Assembly: GCA_951406725.2 (NCBI GenBank)
Contig: OX597826.1
Coordinates: 75,702,001 to 75,766,000 of the forward strand
Reading direction: 5' to 3'
Origin: Octopus vulgaris
Lineage: Eukaryota
Length of the DNA: 64,000 nt
Of the stretch, positions 1,345 through 31,815 are shown piece by piece (within the stretch, counting starts at the first letter, position 1; each line of letters starts with the position of its first letter). The notes beneath the pieces were generated by a model that was not told the origin of the DNA, made no database searches, and saw only the letters and a list, made by a program, of their open reading frames with translations. The position numbers were made by a program, and so were the translations under genes.

Positions 1345-1775
1345 GATGAATATGGTACTTAAGTTGAGGCACCAGAATTTAGTACAGTATTATCCATACA
1401 ATTTCAAAAATAAGGTGATTAAAATCGAAATAAGCAACAAGGATATCTAGAGGTAATGCAGTTCGATCGTTTCAAGCAACTCCATTTAATTGAACAATGA
1501 AATCATTACATTAATTTAAATGCAGAACAATTCTCAGCTGCATAAAGACAATTTAATTAAATCAAAACAGATGGACACATTAGTATAATTATACCAAGAA
1601 GTTAAGGAGATAGACAAAGAACATGATGTTATTTTCACTTCAGTTTTAGAAGCCACTAAGGTATGCAGCTGAGGATTGCTCTGCATTTAAATTGATGTAA
1701 TGATTGCATTGTTCAATTAAATGGAGTTGATGGAAACGATCGTACTGCATTACCTCTGGATAATCTTATTGCTTA
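1345..1775. mobile_element. Fold-back element, family A (probable Penelope pseudo-LTR derivative), with inverted arms 1431-1544 / 1662-1775 that each contain a hammerhead motif
   Basis: The ~114-bp arms are imperfect reverse complements. The same family recurs at 10377-10530 and, more diverged, at 20170-20545. Confidence 0.75.
1663..1750 (+). ncRNA. Type I hammerhead ribozyme motif
   Basis: ATGCAG-CTGAGGA(1669-1675)-long stem II (CATTTAAATTGA...TCAATTAAATG)-GAAA(1733-1736)-CGATCG-TA-CTGCAT. Perfect 6-bp stem I and palindromic stem III; the base of stem II pairs poorly. Confidence 0.65.
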
Positions 1776-5520: not shown

Positions 5521-5580
5521 TACATATATGTACCTAAGTTAACACCATCTTTAAACAAACATAATCCAAATATATATTAA

Positions 5581-6020
5581 AAGTCAGGATATAATATGTA
5601 CTAGTTTGCTTGAAAGAAAAATAAACCTCCAAAACCACATATCTCTCACCATATGTAAACATGTACGGGGAATGTCTCAAATACATTTAGAAAAACGGTT
5701 CTTCCAGTTTGTAAACCTACAAACAGGAGGTACATATCCTAGTATCAAATGCGCACGGAAAGGTAAATGTATTTTTAAAAAAACTATTTGCGCAGTAAGC
5801 CTTGCTGATGAGCTTTAAGTGTCAATTCGACACAGATTGTGAAATCAATTGATTCGGAGATATCTATCCTCCTCTTTGCAGATTTACAAACTGGAAGAAC
5901 CGTTTTTCTAAATGTATTTGCTACATTCTCCGTGCATGTTTACATATAGTGAAAGATACGTGGTTTTGGAGAGTTTTATTCTTCTTTCAAGCAAACGGGC
6001 ACATATTGCACCCTGACTTA
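5581..6020. mobile_element. Fold-back element with ~155-bp inverted arms (5581-5738 / 5859-6020) enclosing a hammerhead motif
   Basis: AAATACATTTAGAAAAACGGTTCTTCCAGTTTGTAAA on the left is the exact reverse complement of TTTACAAACTGGAAGAACCGTTTTTCTAAATGTATTT on the right. Similarity extends to AAGTCAGG/CCTGACTT. Confidence 0.8.
5800..5859 (+). ncRNA. Type I hammerhead ribozyme motif
   Basis: CCTTG-CTGATGA(5805-5811)-GC..GTGTC AATTC GACAC..GT-GAAA(5841-5844)-TCAATTGA (palindrome)-TT-CGGAG. Stem I is weak (G-U pairs). Confidence 0.6.
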
Positions 6021-7098: not shown

Positions 7099-7505
7099 TG
7101 TCCTGGTTATCACTTTAAACTGCCTCTGATAGTGGAGCCCTAATTCGGGATTCCTGGAATTCGAAGACTGAAACCCCCACTTTAGCCTATATTGTTCTTA
7201 TCTCAACTCTGCCTCGGTGTAATAGTCCTACCAATTTCTAAGCTATTGATTAATCAGCATGTAAATATGAACCTCAGGAAGTAAGGGGCTCTAAGCTGTT
7301 GTCATAGCAACCTTCTAGAAGAAGGACACTCTAATGCAAAACCTGTAGGTTCACATGATTTCAGGTCATCTCGCATCGATTTATCACTAGGTACGAACCA
7401 CGTAGCCTCAGAAACTGTTACTCATGTTGTACAAGCGTTTCTCATTATAATCCAATGATATACAGGTGTGTTTTTATCGAGGGCTTATTTGTCATTTATC
7501 ATTTC

Positions 7506-8290
7506 TATTTCTTTATTGCCCACAAGGGGCTAAACATAGAGGGGACAAACAAGGACAGACAAAGTGATTAAGCCGATTACATCGACCCCAGTGCGTAATT
7601 GGTACTTAAATTATTGACCCCGAAAGGATGAAAGGTAAAGTCGACCTCGGCGGAATTTGAACTCAGAACATAAAGACTGCCGAAATACCCATTTCTTTAC
7701 TGTCCACAAGGGGCTACACACAGAGGGGACAAACAAGGACAGACAAACGGATTAAGTCGATTACATCGACCCCAGTGCATAACTGGTACTTTTATTTATC
7801 GACCCCGAAAGAATGAAAGGCTAAGTCGACCGCGACAGAATTTGAACTCGGAACGTAGCGGGAGACGAAATACCTATTTCTTTATTACCCACAAGGGGCT
7901 AAACACAGAGGGGACAAACAAGGACAGACATAGGTATTAAGTCGATTACATCGACCCCAGTGCATAACTGGTGCTTAATTTATCGAGCCCGAAAGAATGA
8001 AAGGCTAAGTCGACCTCGGCAGAATTTGAACTCGGAACGTAGCGGCAGACGAAATACCTATTTCTTTATTACCCACAAGGAGCTAAACACAGAGGGGACA
8101 AACAAGGACAGACATAGGTATTAAGTCGATTACATCGACCCCAGTGCATAACTGGTACTTAATTTATCGACCCCGAAAGAATGAAAGGCTAAGTCGACCT
8201 CGGCAGAATTTGAACTCGGAACGTAGCGGCAGACGAAATACCTCTAAGCATTTCGCCCGGCGTGCTAACGTTTCTGCCAGCTCGCCGCCT
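7506..8290 (-). mobile_element. Head-to-tail tetramer of a tRNA-derived SINE: four ~184-bp units with a single 48-bp head
   Basis: Units start at 7506, 7690, 7875 and 8059. The head GGCGGCGAGCTGGCAGAAACGTTAGCACG occurs only at 8243-8290. Each unit has the B box GAGTTCAAATTC and the central domain GTCGACTTTGCCTTTCATCCTTTCGGGGTCGATAAATTAAGTACCAG. Confidence 0.9.
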
Positions 8291-8429
8291 TTGTCATTTA
8301 TCATTCCATCTACTAAACGTCCAGCACAATGAAACTGTGATGACGTTTACCGATCTAATCAGCTGGAAACGCACAGGTACGAGGCAGTGTAATTGAATAG
8401 TCGTCCGAGAGGTCATGGCCGGAAAATCA

Positions 8430-8664
8430 GAAATACCTATTTCTTTATTACCCACAAGGGGCTAAACATAGAGGGAACAAACACGGACAGACATAGGTAT
8501 TAAGTCGATTACATCGACCCCAGTGCGTAACTGGTACTTAATTTATCGACCCCGAAAGGATGAAAGGCAAAGTCGACCTCGGCGGAATTTGAACTCACAA
8601 CGTAACGGCAGATGAAATACCTCTATGCATTTCGCCCGACGTGCTAACGTTTCTGCCAGCTACC
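8430..8664 (-). mobile_element. Monomer of the same SINE, retaining the multimer junction GAAATACC|TATTTC
   Basis: Aligns by eye to the 7506-8290 units. Confidence 0.9.
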
Positions 8665-9810: not shown

Positions 9811-10376
9811 TAAACCAGCATGTAAGACTATTTTTTTTTTCGGAAACTGCAGTCGGAATCAACTCATCCGATAGAATACCAGCAGTACAAGCAACACCGC
9901 TGCTCACCCATACCGTTCCACTCTCCTTTCCTTTTGCTGCTGTTCAGAGAATGCAGAGAGAACCACTGACTGGACCCGACCACTCTCTATTCAATGAGAA
10001 TGTCTGATGAGGCTGTTTGCTCGTTTATACTGGTTTACTTGGTCAGAGAGAAAGAACAAAAAATATATACATAAACCAATCAATATATAAATACATAAAT
10101 ATACAGGTTGGCCCAAAATTCGCTCTACCATTGAATGTGTAACACAAATGTTTTCAATGGTAAATTGGATTCTGGGCCACTCTGTACATACATGTATGCA
10201 TACATACACATACACACATACATACATACACACATACATACATACATACATACATACATACATACATACATACACAACATAAGTACCATATTCATCTGAA
10301 TATATATATATATATATATACAATTATATATATATACATACACACACATATATATAATTTGTATATAAATAGATAT

Positions 10377-10530
10377 AAATCAAAATAAGCCACAAGGATA
10401 TCCAGAGGTAATGCATTACCTGTGGATATCCTTGTTGCTTATTTTGATTTTAATCACCTTATTTTGAAATTGTATGGATAATACCGTACTAAATTCTGGT
10501 GCCTCAACTTAAGTACCATATTCCTCTGAA
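10377..10530 (+). mobile_element. Family A element fragment beginning with a loop-less 74-bp palindrome (10377-10450)
   Basis: AAATCAAAATAAGCCACAAGGATATCCAGAGGTAATG|CATTACCTGTGGATATCCTTGTTGCTTATTTTGATTT. The rest is the reverse complement of 1345-1430. Confidence 0.8.
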
Positions 10531-23342: not shown

Positions 23343-25394
23343 TAAGGAAGGAAGGAAGAAAGGAAGGAAGGAAGGAAGGAAGGAAGGAAGAAAGGAAGGA
23401 AGGAAGGAAGGAAGAAAGAAAGAAAGGAAGGAAGGAAGGAAGAAAGAAAGGAAGGAAGGAAGGAAGGAAGAAAGAAAGGAAGGAAGGAAGGAAGAAAGAA
23501 AGAAAGGAAGGAAGGAAGAAAGAAAGAAACGAAGGAAGGAAGAAAGAAAGAAGGAAGGAAGGGAGGAAGGAAGAAAGAAAGGAAGAAGGAAAGGAAGAAA
23601 GAAACCAAGGGAGAAAGAAAGGAAGAAAGAAAGAAAGAAAGGAAGAAAGAAAGAAAAGAAGGAAAGAAGGAAGAAAGAAAGAAAGATAGGAAGGAAGGAA
23701 GGAAGGAAGGAAAAAAGAAAAAAGGAAGGAAGGAAGGAAGAAAGGAAGGAAGGAAGAAAGAAAAAAGGAAGAAGGAAGAAAGAAAGGAAGGAAGGAAGGA
23801 AGAAAGAAAGAAAAGATGGATGGAAGGAAGGAAGACAGAAAGAAAGGAAGGAAGGAAGGAAGAAAGAAAGGAAGGAAGGAAGGAAGAAAGAACAAAGAAA
23901 GGAAGAAAGAAAGGAAGAAAGAAAGAAAGAAAGAAGAAAGAAAGAAAGAAAGAAAGAACGAAAGGAAGGAAGGAAGGAAGGAAGAAAGAAAGGAAGAAAG
24001 AAAGGAAGAAGGAAAGGAAGAAAGAAAGGAAGGAAGAAAGGAAGAAAGAAAGAAATAAAGAAAGAAAAAAGAAAGAAAGAAAGAAAGGAAGGAAGGAAAG
24101 AAGAAAGAATGGAAGGAAGGAAGAAAGAAAGAAAGGAAGGAATAAAGAAAGAAAGGAAGGAAGGAAGGAAGGAAGAAAGAAAAAAGGAAGGAAGGAAGGA
24201 AGAAAGGAAGGAAGGAAGGAAGAAAGAAAGGTAGGAAGGAAGGAAGAAAGAAAGAAAGGAAAGAAGGAAGGAAGGAAGGAAGAAAGGAAGGAAAAAAGAA
24301 AAAAGGAAGGAAGGAAGAAAGAAAGAAAGGAAGGTAGGAAGGAAAGAAGGAAGGAAGGAAAGAAGGAAGGAAGGAAGGAAGGAAGGAAGAAAGAAAGGAA
24401 GAAAGACAGGAAAAAAGAAAGAAAGGAGAAGGAAAGAAAAAAAGAAAGGAAGAAAGAAGAAAAGGAAGGAAGGAAGGATGGAAGGAAGAAAGGAAGGAAG
24501 GAAGAAAGAAAGGTAGAAAGAAAGAAAGGAAGGAAGGAAGAAATAAAGAAAGGAAGGAAGAAAGAAAGAAAGGAAGGAAGGAAGGGAGGAAGGAAGAAAG
24601 AAAAAAGGAAGGAAGGAAGAAGGAAGAAAGGAAGGAAGGAAGAAAGAAAGAAAGAAAGGAAGGAAGGAAGGAAGGAAGAAAGAAAGGAAGGAAGGAAGGA
24701 AGAAAGACAAGAAGTAAGGAAGGAAGGAAGAAGGAAGAAAGAAAGGAAGAAAGAAAGGAAGAAAGAAAGAAAGAAAGAATGAAAGAAAGAAAGAAAGGAA
24801 GGAAGGAAGGAAGGAAGAAAGAAAGGGAAAAGAAAGGAAGAAAGAAAGGAAGAAAGAAAGGAAGAAAGAAAGAAAGAAAGAAAGGAAGGAAGGAAGGAAG
24901 GAAGATAGGAAGAAAGGAAGGAAGGAAAGAAGAAAGAAAGAAAGGAAGGAAGGAAGGAAAGAAAGAAAGAAAGAAAGGAAGGAAGGAAGGAAGGAAGAAA
25001 GGAAGAAAGAAAATAGGAAGGAAGGAAGGAAGGAAGAAAGAAAGGAAGGAAGGAAGGAAGAAAGAAAGGAAGGAAGAAAGGAAGAAAGAAAGGAAGGAAG
25101 GAAGGAAGGAAGGAAGAAGGAAGAAAGAAAGGAAGAAGGAAAGGAAGAAAGAAAGGAAGGAAGAAAGAAAGGAAGAAAGAAAGAAAGAAAGAAAGGAAGG
25201 AAGAAAAAAGAAAGAAAGAAAGGAAAGAAAGAAAGAAAGGAAGGAAGGAAGGGAGGAAGAAAGGAAGGAAGGGAGAAAGAAAGGAAGGAAGAAAGAAAGG
25301 AAAGGAAGGAAGGAAGGAAGAAAGAAAAAAGGAAGGAAGGAAGGAAGAAAGAAAGGAAGGAAGGAAGGAAGAAAGAAAGAAAGAAAGAAAGAAA

Positions 25395-25431
<37 letters not shown>

Positions 25432-26024
25432 GAAGGAAGGAAGGAAGGAAGAAAGGAAGAAAGGAAGAAAGAAAGGAAGAAAGAAAGAAAGAAAGAAGCA
25501 AGAAAGAAAGAAAGAAAGAAAGGAAGAAAGGAAGGAAAGAAAGAAAGAAAGAAAGGAAGGAAGGAAGGAAGAAAAGAAGGAAGGAAGAAAGAAAGGAAGG
25601 AAGGAAGGAAGAAAGGAAGGAAGAAAGAAAAAAGGAAGGAAGGAAGAAAGAAAGAAAGGAAGGAAGGAAGAAAGAAAGAAAGGTAGGATGGAAGGAAGGA
25701 AGAAAGAAAGAAATTAAGGAAGGAAGGAAGAAAGAAAGGAAGGATGGAAGGAAGGAAGGAGGAAGGAAGAAAGAAAGGAAGAAAGAATTGAAGAAAGAAA
25801 GAAAGAAAAGAAGGACGGAAGGAACGAAGGAAGAAAGGAAGGAAGGAAGGAAGAAAGAAAGGAAGTCAGGACGGAAGGAAGGAAGAAAGGAAGAAAGAAA
25901 GGAAGAAAGAAAGGAAGAAAGAAAGGAAGAAAGAAAGGAAGGGAAGAAAGGAAGGAAGGAAGGAAGGAAGAAAGGAAGAAAGGAAGAAAGGAAGAAAGAA
26001 AGAAAGAAAGGAAGAAAGAAAGGC

Positions 26025-26058
<34 letters not shown>

Positions 26059-26241
26059 GAAGGAAGGAAGAAAGAAAGAAAGAAAGGAAGAAAGAAAGAA
26101 AGGAAGGAAGGAAGGATGGAATGAAGGAAGGAAGAAAGAAAGAACGGAAGGAAGGAAGGAAGAAGAAGGAAGAAAGAAAGAAAGAAAGGAAGGAAGGAAG
26201 GAAGAAGGAAGGAAGGAAGAAGGAAGAAAGAAAGAAAGAAA

Positions 26242-26306
<65 letters not shown>

Positions 26307-27862
26307 GAAGGAAGGAAGGAAGGAAGGAAGAAGGAAGGAAGAAAGAAAGAAGAAAGGAAGGAAGAAGAAAGGAAGAAAGAAAGGAAGAAAGAAAGAAAGG
26401 AAGGAAGGAAGGAAGGAAGGAAGAAAGAAGGAAGGAAGAAAGGAAGGAAGGAAGGAAGAAGGAAGGAAGAAAGAAAGAAGGAAGGAAGAAAGAAAGGAAG
26501 GAAGGAAGGAAGGAAAGAAGAAGGAAGGAAGGAAGGAAGGAAGGAAGGAAGGAAGGAAGGAAGGAAAGAAGGAAGGAGGAAAGAAAGAAAGGAAGAAAGA
26601 AAGAAAGGAAGGAAGGAAGGAAGAAAGAAAGAACGGAAGGAAGGAAGGAAGGAAGAAAGAAAGAAAGAAAGAAGGAAGAAAGAAAGAAAGGAAGAAAGGA
26701 AGTAAGAAAGAAGAAAGAAAGAAAGAAAGAAAGAAGGAAAGAAAGAAAGGAAGGAATGAAGGGAAGGAAGGAAGGAAGGAAGGAAGGAAAGGAAGGAAAG
26801 GAAGAAAGGAAGAAAGAATGAAAGAAAGGAAGAAAGAAAGGCAGAAAGAAGAAAGAAAGGAAGGAAGAAGGAAGGAAGGAAAGAAGGAAGGAAGGAAAGA
26901 AAGAAGGAAGGAAGGAAGAAAGAAAGAAAGAAGGAAGGAAGGAGGAAAAGGAAGGAAGAAAGAAAGAAAGGAAGGAAGAAAGAAAGGAAGGAAAGAAAGA
27001 AAGAAAGAAAGAAGGAAGGAAGGAAGAAGGAAGGAAGGAAGGAAGAAAGAAAGAAAGAAAGGAAGATAGGAAGAAAGAAAGAAAGAAAGAAAGAAGGAAG
27101 GAAGGAAGGAAGGAAGGAAAGAAAGAAAGAAAGAAAGGAAGGAAGGAAGGAAGGAAGGAAGAAAGGAAGGAAGGAAGGAAGGAAGGAAGGAAGGAAGGAA
27201 GGAAGGAAGGAAGGAAGGAAGGAAGGAAGGAAGGAAGAAATGAAGGAAGGAAGAAAGGAAGGAAGAAAGAAAGAAAGGAAGGAAGAAAGGAAGGAAGGAA
27301 GGAAGAAAGAAAGAAAGGAAGGAAGAAAGAAAGAAAGGAAGGAAGGAAGAAAGAAAAAAGGAAGGAAGGAAGGAAGAAAGGAAGGAAGGAAGGAAGAAAG
27401 AAAAAGAAAGGAAGGAAGGAAGGAAGGAAGAAAGAACGAAAGGAAGGAAGGAAGGAAGAAAGACAGGAAGGAAGGAAGGAAGGAAGGAAGGAAAAGGAAG
27501 AAAGAAAGGAAGAAAGAAAGAAAGTAAGAATGAAAGAAAGAAAGAAAGAAAGGAAGGAAGGAAGGAAGGAAGAAAGGAAGGAAGGAAGGAATGTAGGAAG
27601 GAAGGAAGAAAGGAAGGAAGGAAGAAAGAAAGGAAGGAAGGAAGGAAGGAAAGAAGGAAGGAAGGAAGGAAAGAAGGAAGGTAGGAAGGAAGAAATGAAG
27701 GATGGAAGAAAGAAAGAAAGGAAGGAAGGAATGAAGGAAGAAAGAAAGAACGGAAGGAAGGAAGGAAGAAAGAAAGAAAGAAAGACAGGAAGGAAGGAAG
27801 GAAGTAAGAAAGGAAGGAAGAAGAAAGAAAGAAAGAAAGAAAGGAAGAAAGAAAGAAATAAG
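20780..27862. repeat. ~7.1-kb polypurine/polypyrimidine (GAAG/GAAA)n low-complexity satellite
   Basis: Almost only A/G on the + strand. Produces the 1082-2403 aa F/L/S/P pseudo-ORFs. Confidence 0.98.
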
Positions 27863-29071
27863 GACATGCATGAACTTCACAACGCTCGGCCGTCACGTCT
27901 TGAAACTTTTTTATACCCGATGCCTTAATTGTCTGCAGAACCAGACCATTAAATTACAGGCTTTAAAATTCCATTAGCGGGAGGGGGGTCACCCTTTATT
28001 TTTATCCCTCTGATTATTGGACGGTGTTCAATCAACTTTACTGTTTTCCAAGTTGGGTGACGACCAAATGAAAGGGCATAAATATTTGATCGCCCCTTGA
28101 GTGGCAATTTGAATACGAGCCAAGCGAAGCATGAAATTAAAGCGATACCAGTTGTCTATTCCCTCTGTGCTTGCCTTGATTTCTTTTGATTTATTGAACG
28201 TGTACAGATAGGGGTATGTCTGGCAATTAAGAACCATAGATGACCGATTTCACTGGGTAGAGGAGGCGATCGACTGAAGAAAATAAATCATTGACATTAA
28301 TTACTCGGAGACTTGAAAAACAATTAGTTAATTTCTGTTAGCATATTGAATCTAGTGGGCATCAAAAGTCTAATTAGAAATATTTATTCAATGAAGAAAA
28401 TAGTTGAGTTCAATTGTAAGTATTACAGGTGCGTGGTTCGGGTATTCGGTTCACGATCGTCGGGTTGTGAGTTCGATTGCAAGTGGGACGTTGTGACATT
28501 CAGCAAGACACTTTATTTCACGTTGCTCCAGTTCAGTACCTGTAAATTATTCAGGTAATAAAGAGGTTCTGGGGCATCAGAGTCTGGAGAGTTGGTGTTT
28601 TACCTGTATTTCAATCATTCTGGTAAGCACTGAAGACAACGAGAATATTTCCCGATTATTAAACCTCTTAACAGAAGAAAATACTCCACCTTATTTGCTA
28701 CAGTCGTGGTAACAGATCTACTATGTACAGGGCTAATACTGTACTCATGCACTCGTTAGAGTGCACAGTTAAAATGTTAACACCAACTTAACTATTGATT
28801 CTCGTGCGGATAGCGTCTTTGAGTTATTAATATAAGGTGTACCTGCTGAAGAAGACTTCGCCAAGCAAATTATTTTATTTGCTAAAAAAAGGTCTGAAAC
28901 CATTGGTACAGGAGTTAGATGGTAAATGTTTTTATTATTTATTCCCTTCGAAATTTTATCCCTAATAGTGGTTTGGAATTTAACTGTTCTCTCTAGCGTG
29001 CAAGGAGTCCTATGATGGATGCCTCTTATGTACACTTATCTACTCTTATGTACACTTTATATATATATATA

Positions 29072-29248
29072 TAATTACAGAAAAACAAAAGACGAAGACA
29101 AGTGTATAAACAACAAGCAGGTGTATTAGTTTGACGCTCAGGAAGGTGAGAAAGTCTTTTATGTTTCGAGCCTACGCTCTTCAACAGAAAAGAATACAAG
29201 GAAAGAGAGAATTTTAAAAATTTATAGAGTTAGCGGTCAATCGTGGCG
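29072..29248 (-). mobile_element. Solo Penelope 3' terminal region with the CUGUUGA hammerhead-like motif
   Basis: Close match to 1797-1985 (AAAGTCTTTTATGTTTCGAGCCTACGCTCTTCAACAGAAAAGA...TAGCGGTCAATCGTGGCG); abuts (TA)n. Confidence 0.8.
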
Positions 29249-31423: not shown

Positions 31424-31622
31424 CAGGGTTATTCAGAAAGAATGAAACGATTTCATTACGCAATATTTTAATTAGGAAAAACAACAGAAAGCTCCAGCTA
31501 AGTCAAAAGGATTTACTCACAATCAACTTTCATTTCCTGTCTTACAAGTGTTCGATGTGGCCACCACCTGCAGCACGGGCAACATCAGTGCGATGAGAGA
31601 ATTCCTCCCAGACGCGTATCAG
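31424..31622 (-). mobile_element. Tc1/mariner 3' end fragment with TIR
   Basis: TA|CAGGGTTATTCAGAAAGAATG terminus. Minus strand LIRVWEEFSHRTDVARAAGGGHIEHL* is a typical C-terminal GxHxEHL motif. Confidence 0.75.
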
Positions 31623-31629
31623 GATATCG

Positions 31630-31767
31630 AAAGCAAGGTCATTATGGAACTAAAGAATAAATTTGCTATGCTTGACGCGATTCCAGAAGATATTGACATA
31701 GAAGGGAAATGGAAAGGCTTCGATAAAGCATTCAACCAGACAGCCAGGGAAGTACTCTGTGGATCGT
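31630..31767 (+). mobile_element. RTE-type LINE internal fragment (EN-RT linker)
   Basis: MELKNKFAMLDAIPEDIDIEGKWKGFDKAFNQTAREVL. Confidence 0.6.
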
Positions 31768-31815
31768 GATATGCTGATACGCGTCTGGGGGGAATTCTCT
31801 TGTCGTACTGATGTT

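Follow-up and report, generated by a model that had tools for sequence, protein, structure and literature searches.

Genomic 5′ ends at a predicted hammerhead cut in octopus Penelope-like elements: a possible record of ribozyme cleavage

Results

Hammerhead motifs and fold-back insertions in the window

The window, the whole 64,000-nucleotide stretch of Octopus vulgaris DNA analysed here, belongs to a microsatellite-rich genome of 2.8 Gb and carries a series of fold-back insertions, several of them bearing hammerhead ribozyme motifs (Table 1). Throughout, positions within elements are counted from the predicted hammerhead cut, +1 being the first base 3′ of it.

Table 1. Hammerhead motifs, arms, and fold-back axis in the window
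Feature	Positions	Strand	Remarks
Family-A fold-back main arm	1341–1660	−	Hammerhead in both arms of fold-back; junction upstream of hammerhead
Type I hammerhead, long stem II	1663–1750	+	Predicted cut after 1744; in short arm (1662–1776) of 1341–1776 fold-back
Main arm, second hammerhead-bearing family (tandem unit of about 425 nt)	5540–5748	−	5′ end −6, past cut
Short partner arm, whole hammerhead	5750–6020	+	CTGATGA 5805–5811, predicted cut after 5854; 3′ end ~+165
Separate short fragment of family-A 3′ tail	10274–10301	+	Starts ~+95
Short inverted arm, family-A insertion	10377–10413	−	3′ end about +39/+40 (second 3′ end), (TA)n-flanked
Fold-back axis	10408–10419		From interrupted 12-nt palindrome at −3 to +9
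Main arm of 10377 insertion	10412–10530	+	From +2 of predicted cleavage product to tail end ~+120
Related-subfamily main arm	20166–20281	−	5′ end at +3
Short partner arm	20282–20356	+	Crosses predicted cut (after 20316)
Further copy, complete hammerhead core	20430–20550	−

A sequence-only reading of the window had proposed a hammerhead at 1663–1750 with a predicted cut after A1744, and this claim was borne out. A type I core and stem I are found there, with CTGAGGA at 1669–1675, GAAA at 1733–1736, and GTA ending at A1744, and with 1663–1668 pairing with 1745–1750; the short arm of this fold-back begins at −82. Across the window and the fetched loci, 186 complete cores follow the type I order CUGANGA...GAAA...NUH, and stem I pairs at 4 or 5 of 5 positions in 146 of them. 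Both strands of stems I and II differ between subfamilies (TGCAG/CTGCA, ATTGG/CCAAA, ATTAG/CTAAA; GTAC/GTAC, GCAC/GTGC), two-sided changes that represent subfamily differences and not a set of independent events. Judged by its sequence, the family A motif is confirmed as a type I hammerhead with a long stem II and a predicted cut site. Folding of one single copy formed stem I and not the core (z −1.5). An Rfam scan gave no hammerhead model among the best 150 of 365 rows, which consisted of microsatellite and hairpin noise; the models are likely missing from the rows listed because stem II is long.

Elsewhere in the window, a decayed stretch of retroelement sequence bearing a YVDD motif occupies 1798–2750 on the minus strand (ORF 2075–2749; Atlas lead HTH_animal, score 0.93; Pfam blank). 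At its end is a third repeat family, which has a minimal motif resembling a hammerhead, with copies at 29075–29248 and 46170–46277. Further fold-backs lie at 37879–38105, 38948–39413, 14182–14330, 10083–10205, and 31581–31815, several of them (TA)n-flanked. A tandem repeat of about 184 nt has dispersed copies (7505–8661, 51971–52202), and in 20680–27900 a gap of 100 Ns precedes about 7 kb of simple, purine-rich repeat.

Identity of the element families

Family A insertions have a main arm that ends near +120 or further, and about half add a short inverted arm with (TA)n flanks and a fixed 3′ end at about +38 to +41. In contigs from four public sequencing runs, the +38/+39 end ranks among the top loose ends each time (4/4). 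This inverted, 5′-truncated arm with a one-sided tail is as in EN+ Penelope-like elements (PLEs), and the insertions themselves are a known PLE product.

Subfamily C′ inserts into (TA)n targets, and in 4 of 70 loci the sequence reaches a coding remnant about 700 nt upstream. The top Atlas match of this remnant is "GIY-YIG catalytic domain" (score 0.95), PDB and homologue searches with it were blank, and Pfam searches of five ORF pieces were blank bar one sub-threshold match. Inspected by eye, the L365 and L338 translations contain the Hydra-clade motifs, namely a CxCX5C linker, CxxC before E, and CxH after N. No RT domain was seen within the 1.5 kb of C′ sequence covered. On the best reading, C′ would be a Hydra-type EN+ PLE, known here from its C-terminal remnant and its hammerhead. 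Subfamily A is tied to this clade by homology of the hammerhead-tail region only, and no GIY-YIG remnant was seen for it within about 1.2 kb.

The family at 5581 is a separate, older element with a tandem unit of about 425 nt and a second end at +165; partial tandems of about 425 nt occur at four of its loci (L148, L153, L156, and L159). Near-identical copies of this family are clustered at 10.98–11.62 Mb of C20 in this genome, probably a segmental duplication array.

Three fold-backs near the predicted cut

In three window elements the fold-back axis had been placed at or just short of the cut. The loop-less palindrome at 10377 does keep nothing upstream of the cut, as claimed, but its junction also fits uncut RNA. 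The axis falls between 10413 and 10414, at +3/+4 of the element, which is the centre of the interrupted 12-nt palindrome at −3 to +9 straddling the predicted cut. Among 86 family-A fold-backs, 5 resolve as at 10377 and 2 (L222, L226) retain −1 to −3, as does a further junction on this palindrome at L135; the 10377-type junction is also present in 8 contigs of sequencing run X16. Because the palindrome also yields junctions retaining −1 to −3, the 10377-type junction needs no cut RNA. The insertion is likely a 5′-truncated head-to-head copy of a hammerhead-bearing PLE, its arms being two cDNAs joined via the short palindrome.

At 20242 an arm ending at +3 exists, but it is the tail-bearing main arm, while the short partner arm passes the cut: the partner (about 20282–20356) contains GAAA..GTA and extends to about −17 or beyond. 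The arm at 5581, described as stopping about 5 nt short of the cut, crosses it. In the register given by the other copies of the family (ATA^CTGGG/CTAGG), the left arm ends at base 5748, or −6 (−9 by the aligner call), and the right arm holds the entire hammerhead from about −101. The misjudgement arose from substitutions at +2 to +4 in the right arm. The window cases are therefore weak, with one of three (5581) failing and two (10377 and 20242) ambiguous. An assembly artefact was considered as a source of the fold-backs and rejected, given that substitutions distinguish the arms and that the junction type is found again in other sequencing runs.

Distribution of 5′ ends across the cut

Copies were sampled by exact 3′-tail patterns, blind to the 5′ end, which gave 347 A and 714 C′ matches. 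We fetched 90 A and 70 C′ copies and kept 88 and 67, or 155 in all. The rows left out were L087, retrieved from the wrong flank, together with L042, L353, L337, L375, and L225, which share a locus or lie in a duplicated one; in the A tail listing, 10 of 100 rows were left out, two of them read-through copies already found by a 260-nt DNA query. The 30 loci from that query were kept out of the counts because it selects hammerhead-containing copies. Eleven 5′ end positions were corrected by hand.

The main arm crosses the cut in 99 of the 155 copies, and 78 extend past −80. Among arms still at risk of ending, pooled 5′ ends fall in +1 to +22 in 36 of 135, compared with 4 of 99 in −1 to −22 and 9 of 144 in +23 to +44 (Fisher p 2e-6 and 3e-6); the remaining bins from +80 to −176 hold 5–15% pooled. 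The corresponding fractions are 23/73, 1/50, and 7/80 for subfamily A and 13/62, 3/49, and 2/64 for C′, which has the step despite lacking GGATATCC and TGCA palindromes. By hand count, copies without a visible inverted arm contribute 12–13 ends in +1 to +22 and 0 in −1 to −22, and of the 36 copies with ends in +1 to +22, about 17 have both arms downstream of the cut. The excess over background in +1 to +22 amounts to about 25 copies (16%), its bulk lying at +5 to +22 and not at +1 to +5; exact +1 ends number about 3 of 155 (about 2% of main arms). The footprint at the cut thus concerns a minority of copies, and the 22-nt step is clear in two subfamilies. Among fold-backs chosen for short gaps, end density declines gradually across the cut, with no step.

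In the 5581 family, whose copies are few and about 20% diverged, 2 of 36 ends fall in +1 to +22 and 6 of 34 in −1 to −22, so that no excess follows the cut. Of its tail-anchored rows, 6/16 end at +145 to +172, near the second start at +165 (two of these are duplicates and one was placed by eye). Because these ends cluster near the family's own second start, the plateau in A and C′ may likewise follow the second start at +39.

Ends at base resolution

Ends were then listed base by base, with patterns requiring three mismatches just upstream of each end. For subfamily A at +1 to +10, the 97 rows were read by eye and comprise about 80 true ends and about 17 read-through copies with indels; the +1 rows were all verified in their loci, and bins +4 to +10 were verified for the first 30 of the 97 rows only. 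The 21 rows at +1 yielded 19 true ends at 17 loci (of about 78 ends), making +1 the commonest single end, while positions +2 to +10 hold 2, 5, 5, 13, 3, 9, 6, 9, and 9. This spike has p 0.002 against a flat null and p 0.012 against the other C-starting bins; with +1 and +2 pooled (19/78), p is 0.20, and the assignment of about six GGATAT(C)TGC joins to one or the other is ambiguous. Microhomology is at most 1 nt at 12 of the 17 loci (hand count).

The A listing from −9 to +1 holds 39 rows, 4 of them read-through copies with indels. Sixteen rows lie at +1 to −2 and 10 at −3 to −8 (p 0.003), and another 7 on the stem-III palindrome; p becomes 0.02 when the upstream control includes the −9 palindrome. 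At the same resolution, the 38 rows of C′ include 4 strict +1 ends, and 9 in +1 to −2 versus 12 in −3 to −9 is not significant (p 0.15). One pair of loci (L460/L461) has a blunt head-to-head join of +1 to +1, and L498 ends at +1 in both arms. Overall, the +1 spike is moderate and is seen in one subfamily, A. Position +1 is not among the best 24 of 278 contig loose ends listed. When RNA-seq from three 2026 runs under another organism code was compared with a family-A copy, reads were of mixed strands with no start pile-up at the cut; with libraries this fragmented and host transcripts present, the comparison says little about cleavage.

Seven loci (L419, L429, L440, L464, L466, L477, and L508) have internal deletions that remove the hammerhead GAAA or stem III and are rejoined at or near the cut. 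They are joined mostly via short direct repeats and could reflect jumps between templates, from a cut RNA to the fragment upstream of it. Separately, in the +1 joins of L425, L493, and one C′ row, the end of the partner lies on the 5′ strand of stem I, at about −80, and in joins of this type stem I itself supplies 4 nt of microhomology.

Junctions between inverted arms

Junction overlaps of at least 4 nt occur in 31 of 83 fold-backs versus 2.4% by chance, a contrast that is somewhat inflated because the observed overlaps allow mismatches; 26 of the 83 have insertions at the junction. Near-symmetric axes recur at +18 (12), +3 (6), −1 (3), −5 (3), and −26 (2), all on palindromes and on both sides of the cut, and inversion junctions range from about +58 to beyond −500. 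The short arm often includes sequence from upstream of where the main arm ends (L072, L075, L080, L117). Because self-copying cannot produce such an arm, two independently primed cDNAs would be the simpler source.

In about 7 copies the main arm stops at +37 to +58 and a long inverted arm has the upstream part, a class that L1 twin priming resembles. Unlike in L1 twin priming, our insertions use a fixed second priming site, and in many pairs the two arms contain copies of one and the same region.

A recurrent asymmetric junction in family A joins +10/+11 to +15/+18 with only 0–2 nt of microhomology; about 8 cases are among the short-gap fold-backs and 4 more are tail-sampled. The loci L041/L042, L352/L353, and L396 hold compound insertions, with two fold-backs in opposed orientation, arms that are both tail-bearing, and a tail-to-tail pair.

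Discussion

Origin of the footprint

The histogram of breakpoints about the cut, which the sequence-only reading had proposed as a check, gives a mixed picture: A and C′ have a step and A has a +1 spike, but the 5581 family has neither, and most of the excess lies beyond +5. We consider hammerhead cleavage in vivo to be the likeliest cause of the footprint at the predicted cut, and on balance a probable one. Our preferred scheme, which we think fairly probable, is two-primer integration of Hydra-type PLEs, with ribozyme-cut RNA serving as template in about 2–16% of copies. Both target strands would be nicked and would prime RT at two internal start sites, with an in vitro parallel in an anole element (PMC11167929), and the cDNA ends would be joined by microhomology annealing or template switch. 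RT that reaches the 5′ end of a cleaved RNA would run off at +1. Joined unchanged, the run-off end would give the exact +1 ends of about 2% of main arms; trimmed to the nearest microhomology, it could account for as many as about 16% of copies, provided that the entire +1 to +22 excess is of this kind. That PLE 5′ junctions record such cleavage, with cut RNA templating retrotransposition, RT running off at the scissile bond, and ends trimmed and joined head to head, is a proposition toward which we lean slightly.

The footprint might also arise with no role for cleavage, which we regard as rather unlikely. The plateau would then stem from the second cDNA start at +39, with products that are often short and joined at G/C-richer microhomologies 17–38 nt away; RT pausing at a folded, uncut hammerhead may add to it, and +1 would reflect binning or chance. 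The 5581 family, with ends that cluster near its second start and not at the cut, fits this account. So do the nonsignificant result for C′ at base level and the p of 0.20 for A with +1/+2 pooled, the symmetric axes that sit on palindromes upstream of the cut too, and an end density that, on a rough rescaling, goes from ~8 to 4 to ~2.4 per nt, smoothly across the cut except at +1. However, the interval +23 to +44, closer to the second start, is not raised (9/144), the step is also present in copies without a visible inverted arm, and the microhomology-free exact +1 ends and the blunt +1/+1 join are left unexplained. If a pLTR promoter near the hammerhead set the ends through its transcription starts, a step with few upstream ends would be expected, and promoter motifs have been proposed for the pLTR (PMC3846280, accessible text). 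Such starts are nonetheless an improbable origin of the ends: only 3 of 35 ends in +1 to +22 are preceded by G (by eye), which argues against a cap-derived extra base, and only by coincidence would a start fall exactly on the scissile bond.

The sequence-only reading had gone further and offered the cut as the mechanism of inverted pLTRs, with RT running off the end made by the ribozyme and the cDNA then snapping back. The copies ending in +1 to +22 with both arms downstream (about 17/36) and the recurrence of the 10377-type junction count in its favour, but the idea is largely refuted and we give it very little credence. Because 99 of 155 copies read through the cut, cleavage is not a general cause of inversion; most long inverted arms cross the cut as well, junctions occur along the whole element, palindromic axes lie on either side of the cut, and short arms hold sequence that self-copying cannot give. 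Naiad elements, moreover, invert without canonical hammerheads, according to the accessible text of PMC8557442. The best explanation is that junctions follow microhomology, and that cleavage bounds some arms and does not cause inversion.

Germline cutting, and copying of the cut RNA, would gain indirect evidence from a genomic signal at the scissile bond. If the cleavage reading is true, breakpoint histograms become a cheap, genome-only assay for germline cutting by individual PLE ribozymes and for the sites at which they cut. The same data argue for two priming sites and microhomology joining, and they speak against the idea that cleavage causes the inverted pLTRs.

Comparison with known systems

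Palindromic inverted junctions are already known; what is new is that, in a minority of copies, the ends leave a statistical footprint at the cut. We found no article relating PLE breakpoints to the hammerhead cut in the open-access literature, supplements aside, and the role of the hammerhead in EN+ PLEs is called unclear, without in-vivo evidence, in the accessible portions of PMC8557442 and PMC4209133. The comparisons below likewise follow the accessible text of each source.

The complex insertions of EN+ PLEs (PMC3846280, PMC8557442) share with ours the 5′ truncation, the head-to-head inverted arm, junction palindromes and microhomology, the one-sided tail, and microsatellite targets. Their tail is 30–40 nt, whereas it is about 80–85 nt here, and in the text available their junctions are not related to the hammerhead cut; in PMC3846280 the palindromes are ascribed to self-priming on an antisense template. 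The Hydra clade (PMC8557442) resembles C′ in its C-terminal GIY-YIG, of which a remnant is present here, its CxCX5C linker, its CxxC and CxH motifs, its canonical hammerhead, and its insertion into (TA)n.

In vitro, the anole Poseidon element PAc (PMC11167929) uses two internal RT starts, which would explain two 3′ ends, and both strands are nicked and extended. The hammerhead is dispensable in that system, where hammerhead mutants leave insertion unchanged and, in the text available, no RNA-seq reads begin at the cut, whereas here some genomic ends lie on the cut. Metazoan non-LTR retrozymes (PMC7229834, bioRxiv 10.64898/2026.07.22.740005) also carry a type I hammerhead with a short palindromic stem III, and the 5581 family is like them in its tandem unit of about 425 nt; A and C′, by contrast, are not short tandems, and C′ runs on into a coding remnant. 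The precedent for 5′ junctions defined by a ribozyme is R2. In R2 elements with HDV-like ribozymes (PMC3774820), as in our data, the ribozyme cut is reflected in genomic 5′ junctions and variable junctions form via chance microhomology. There the cut defines the 5′ end of the full-length RNA, whereas here it is internal to the 3′ UTR/pLTR and marks the ends of a minority of copies.
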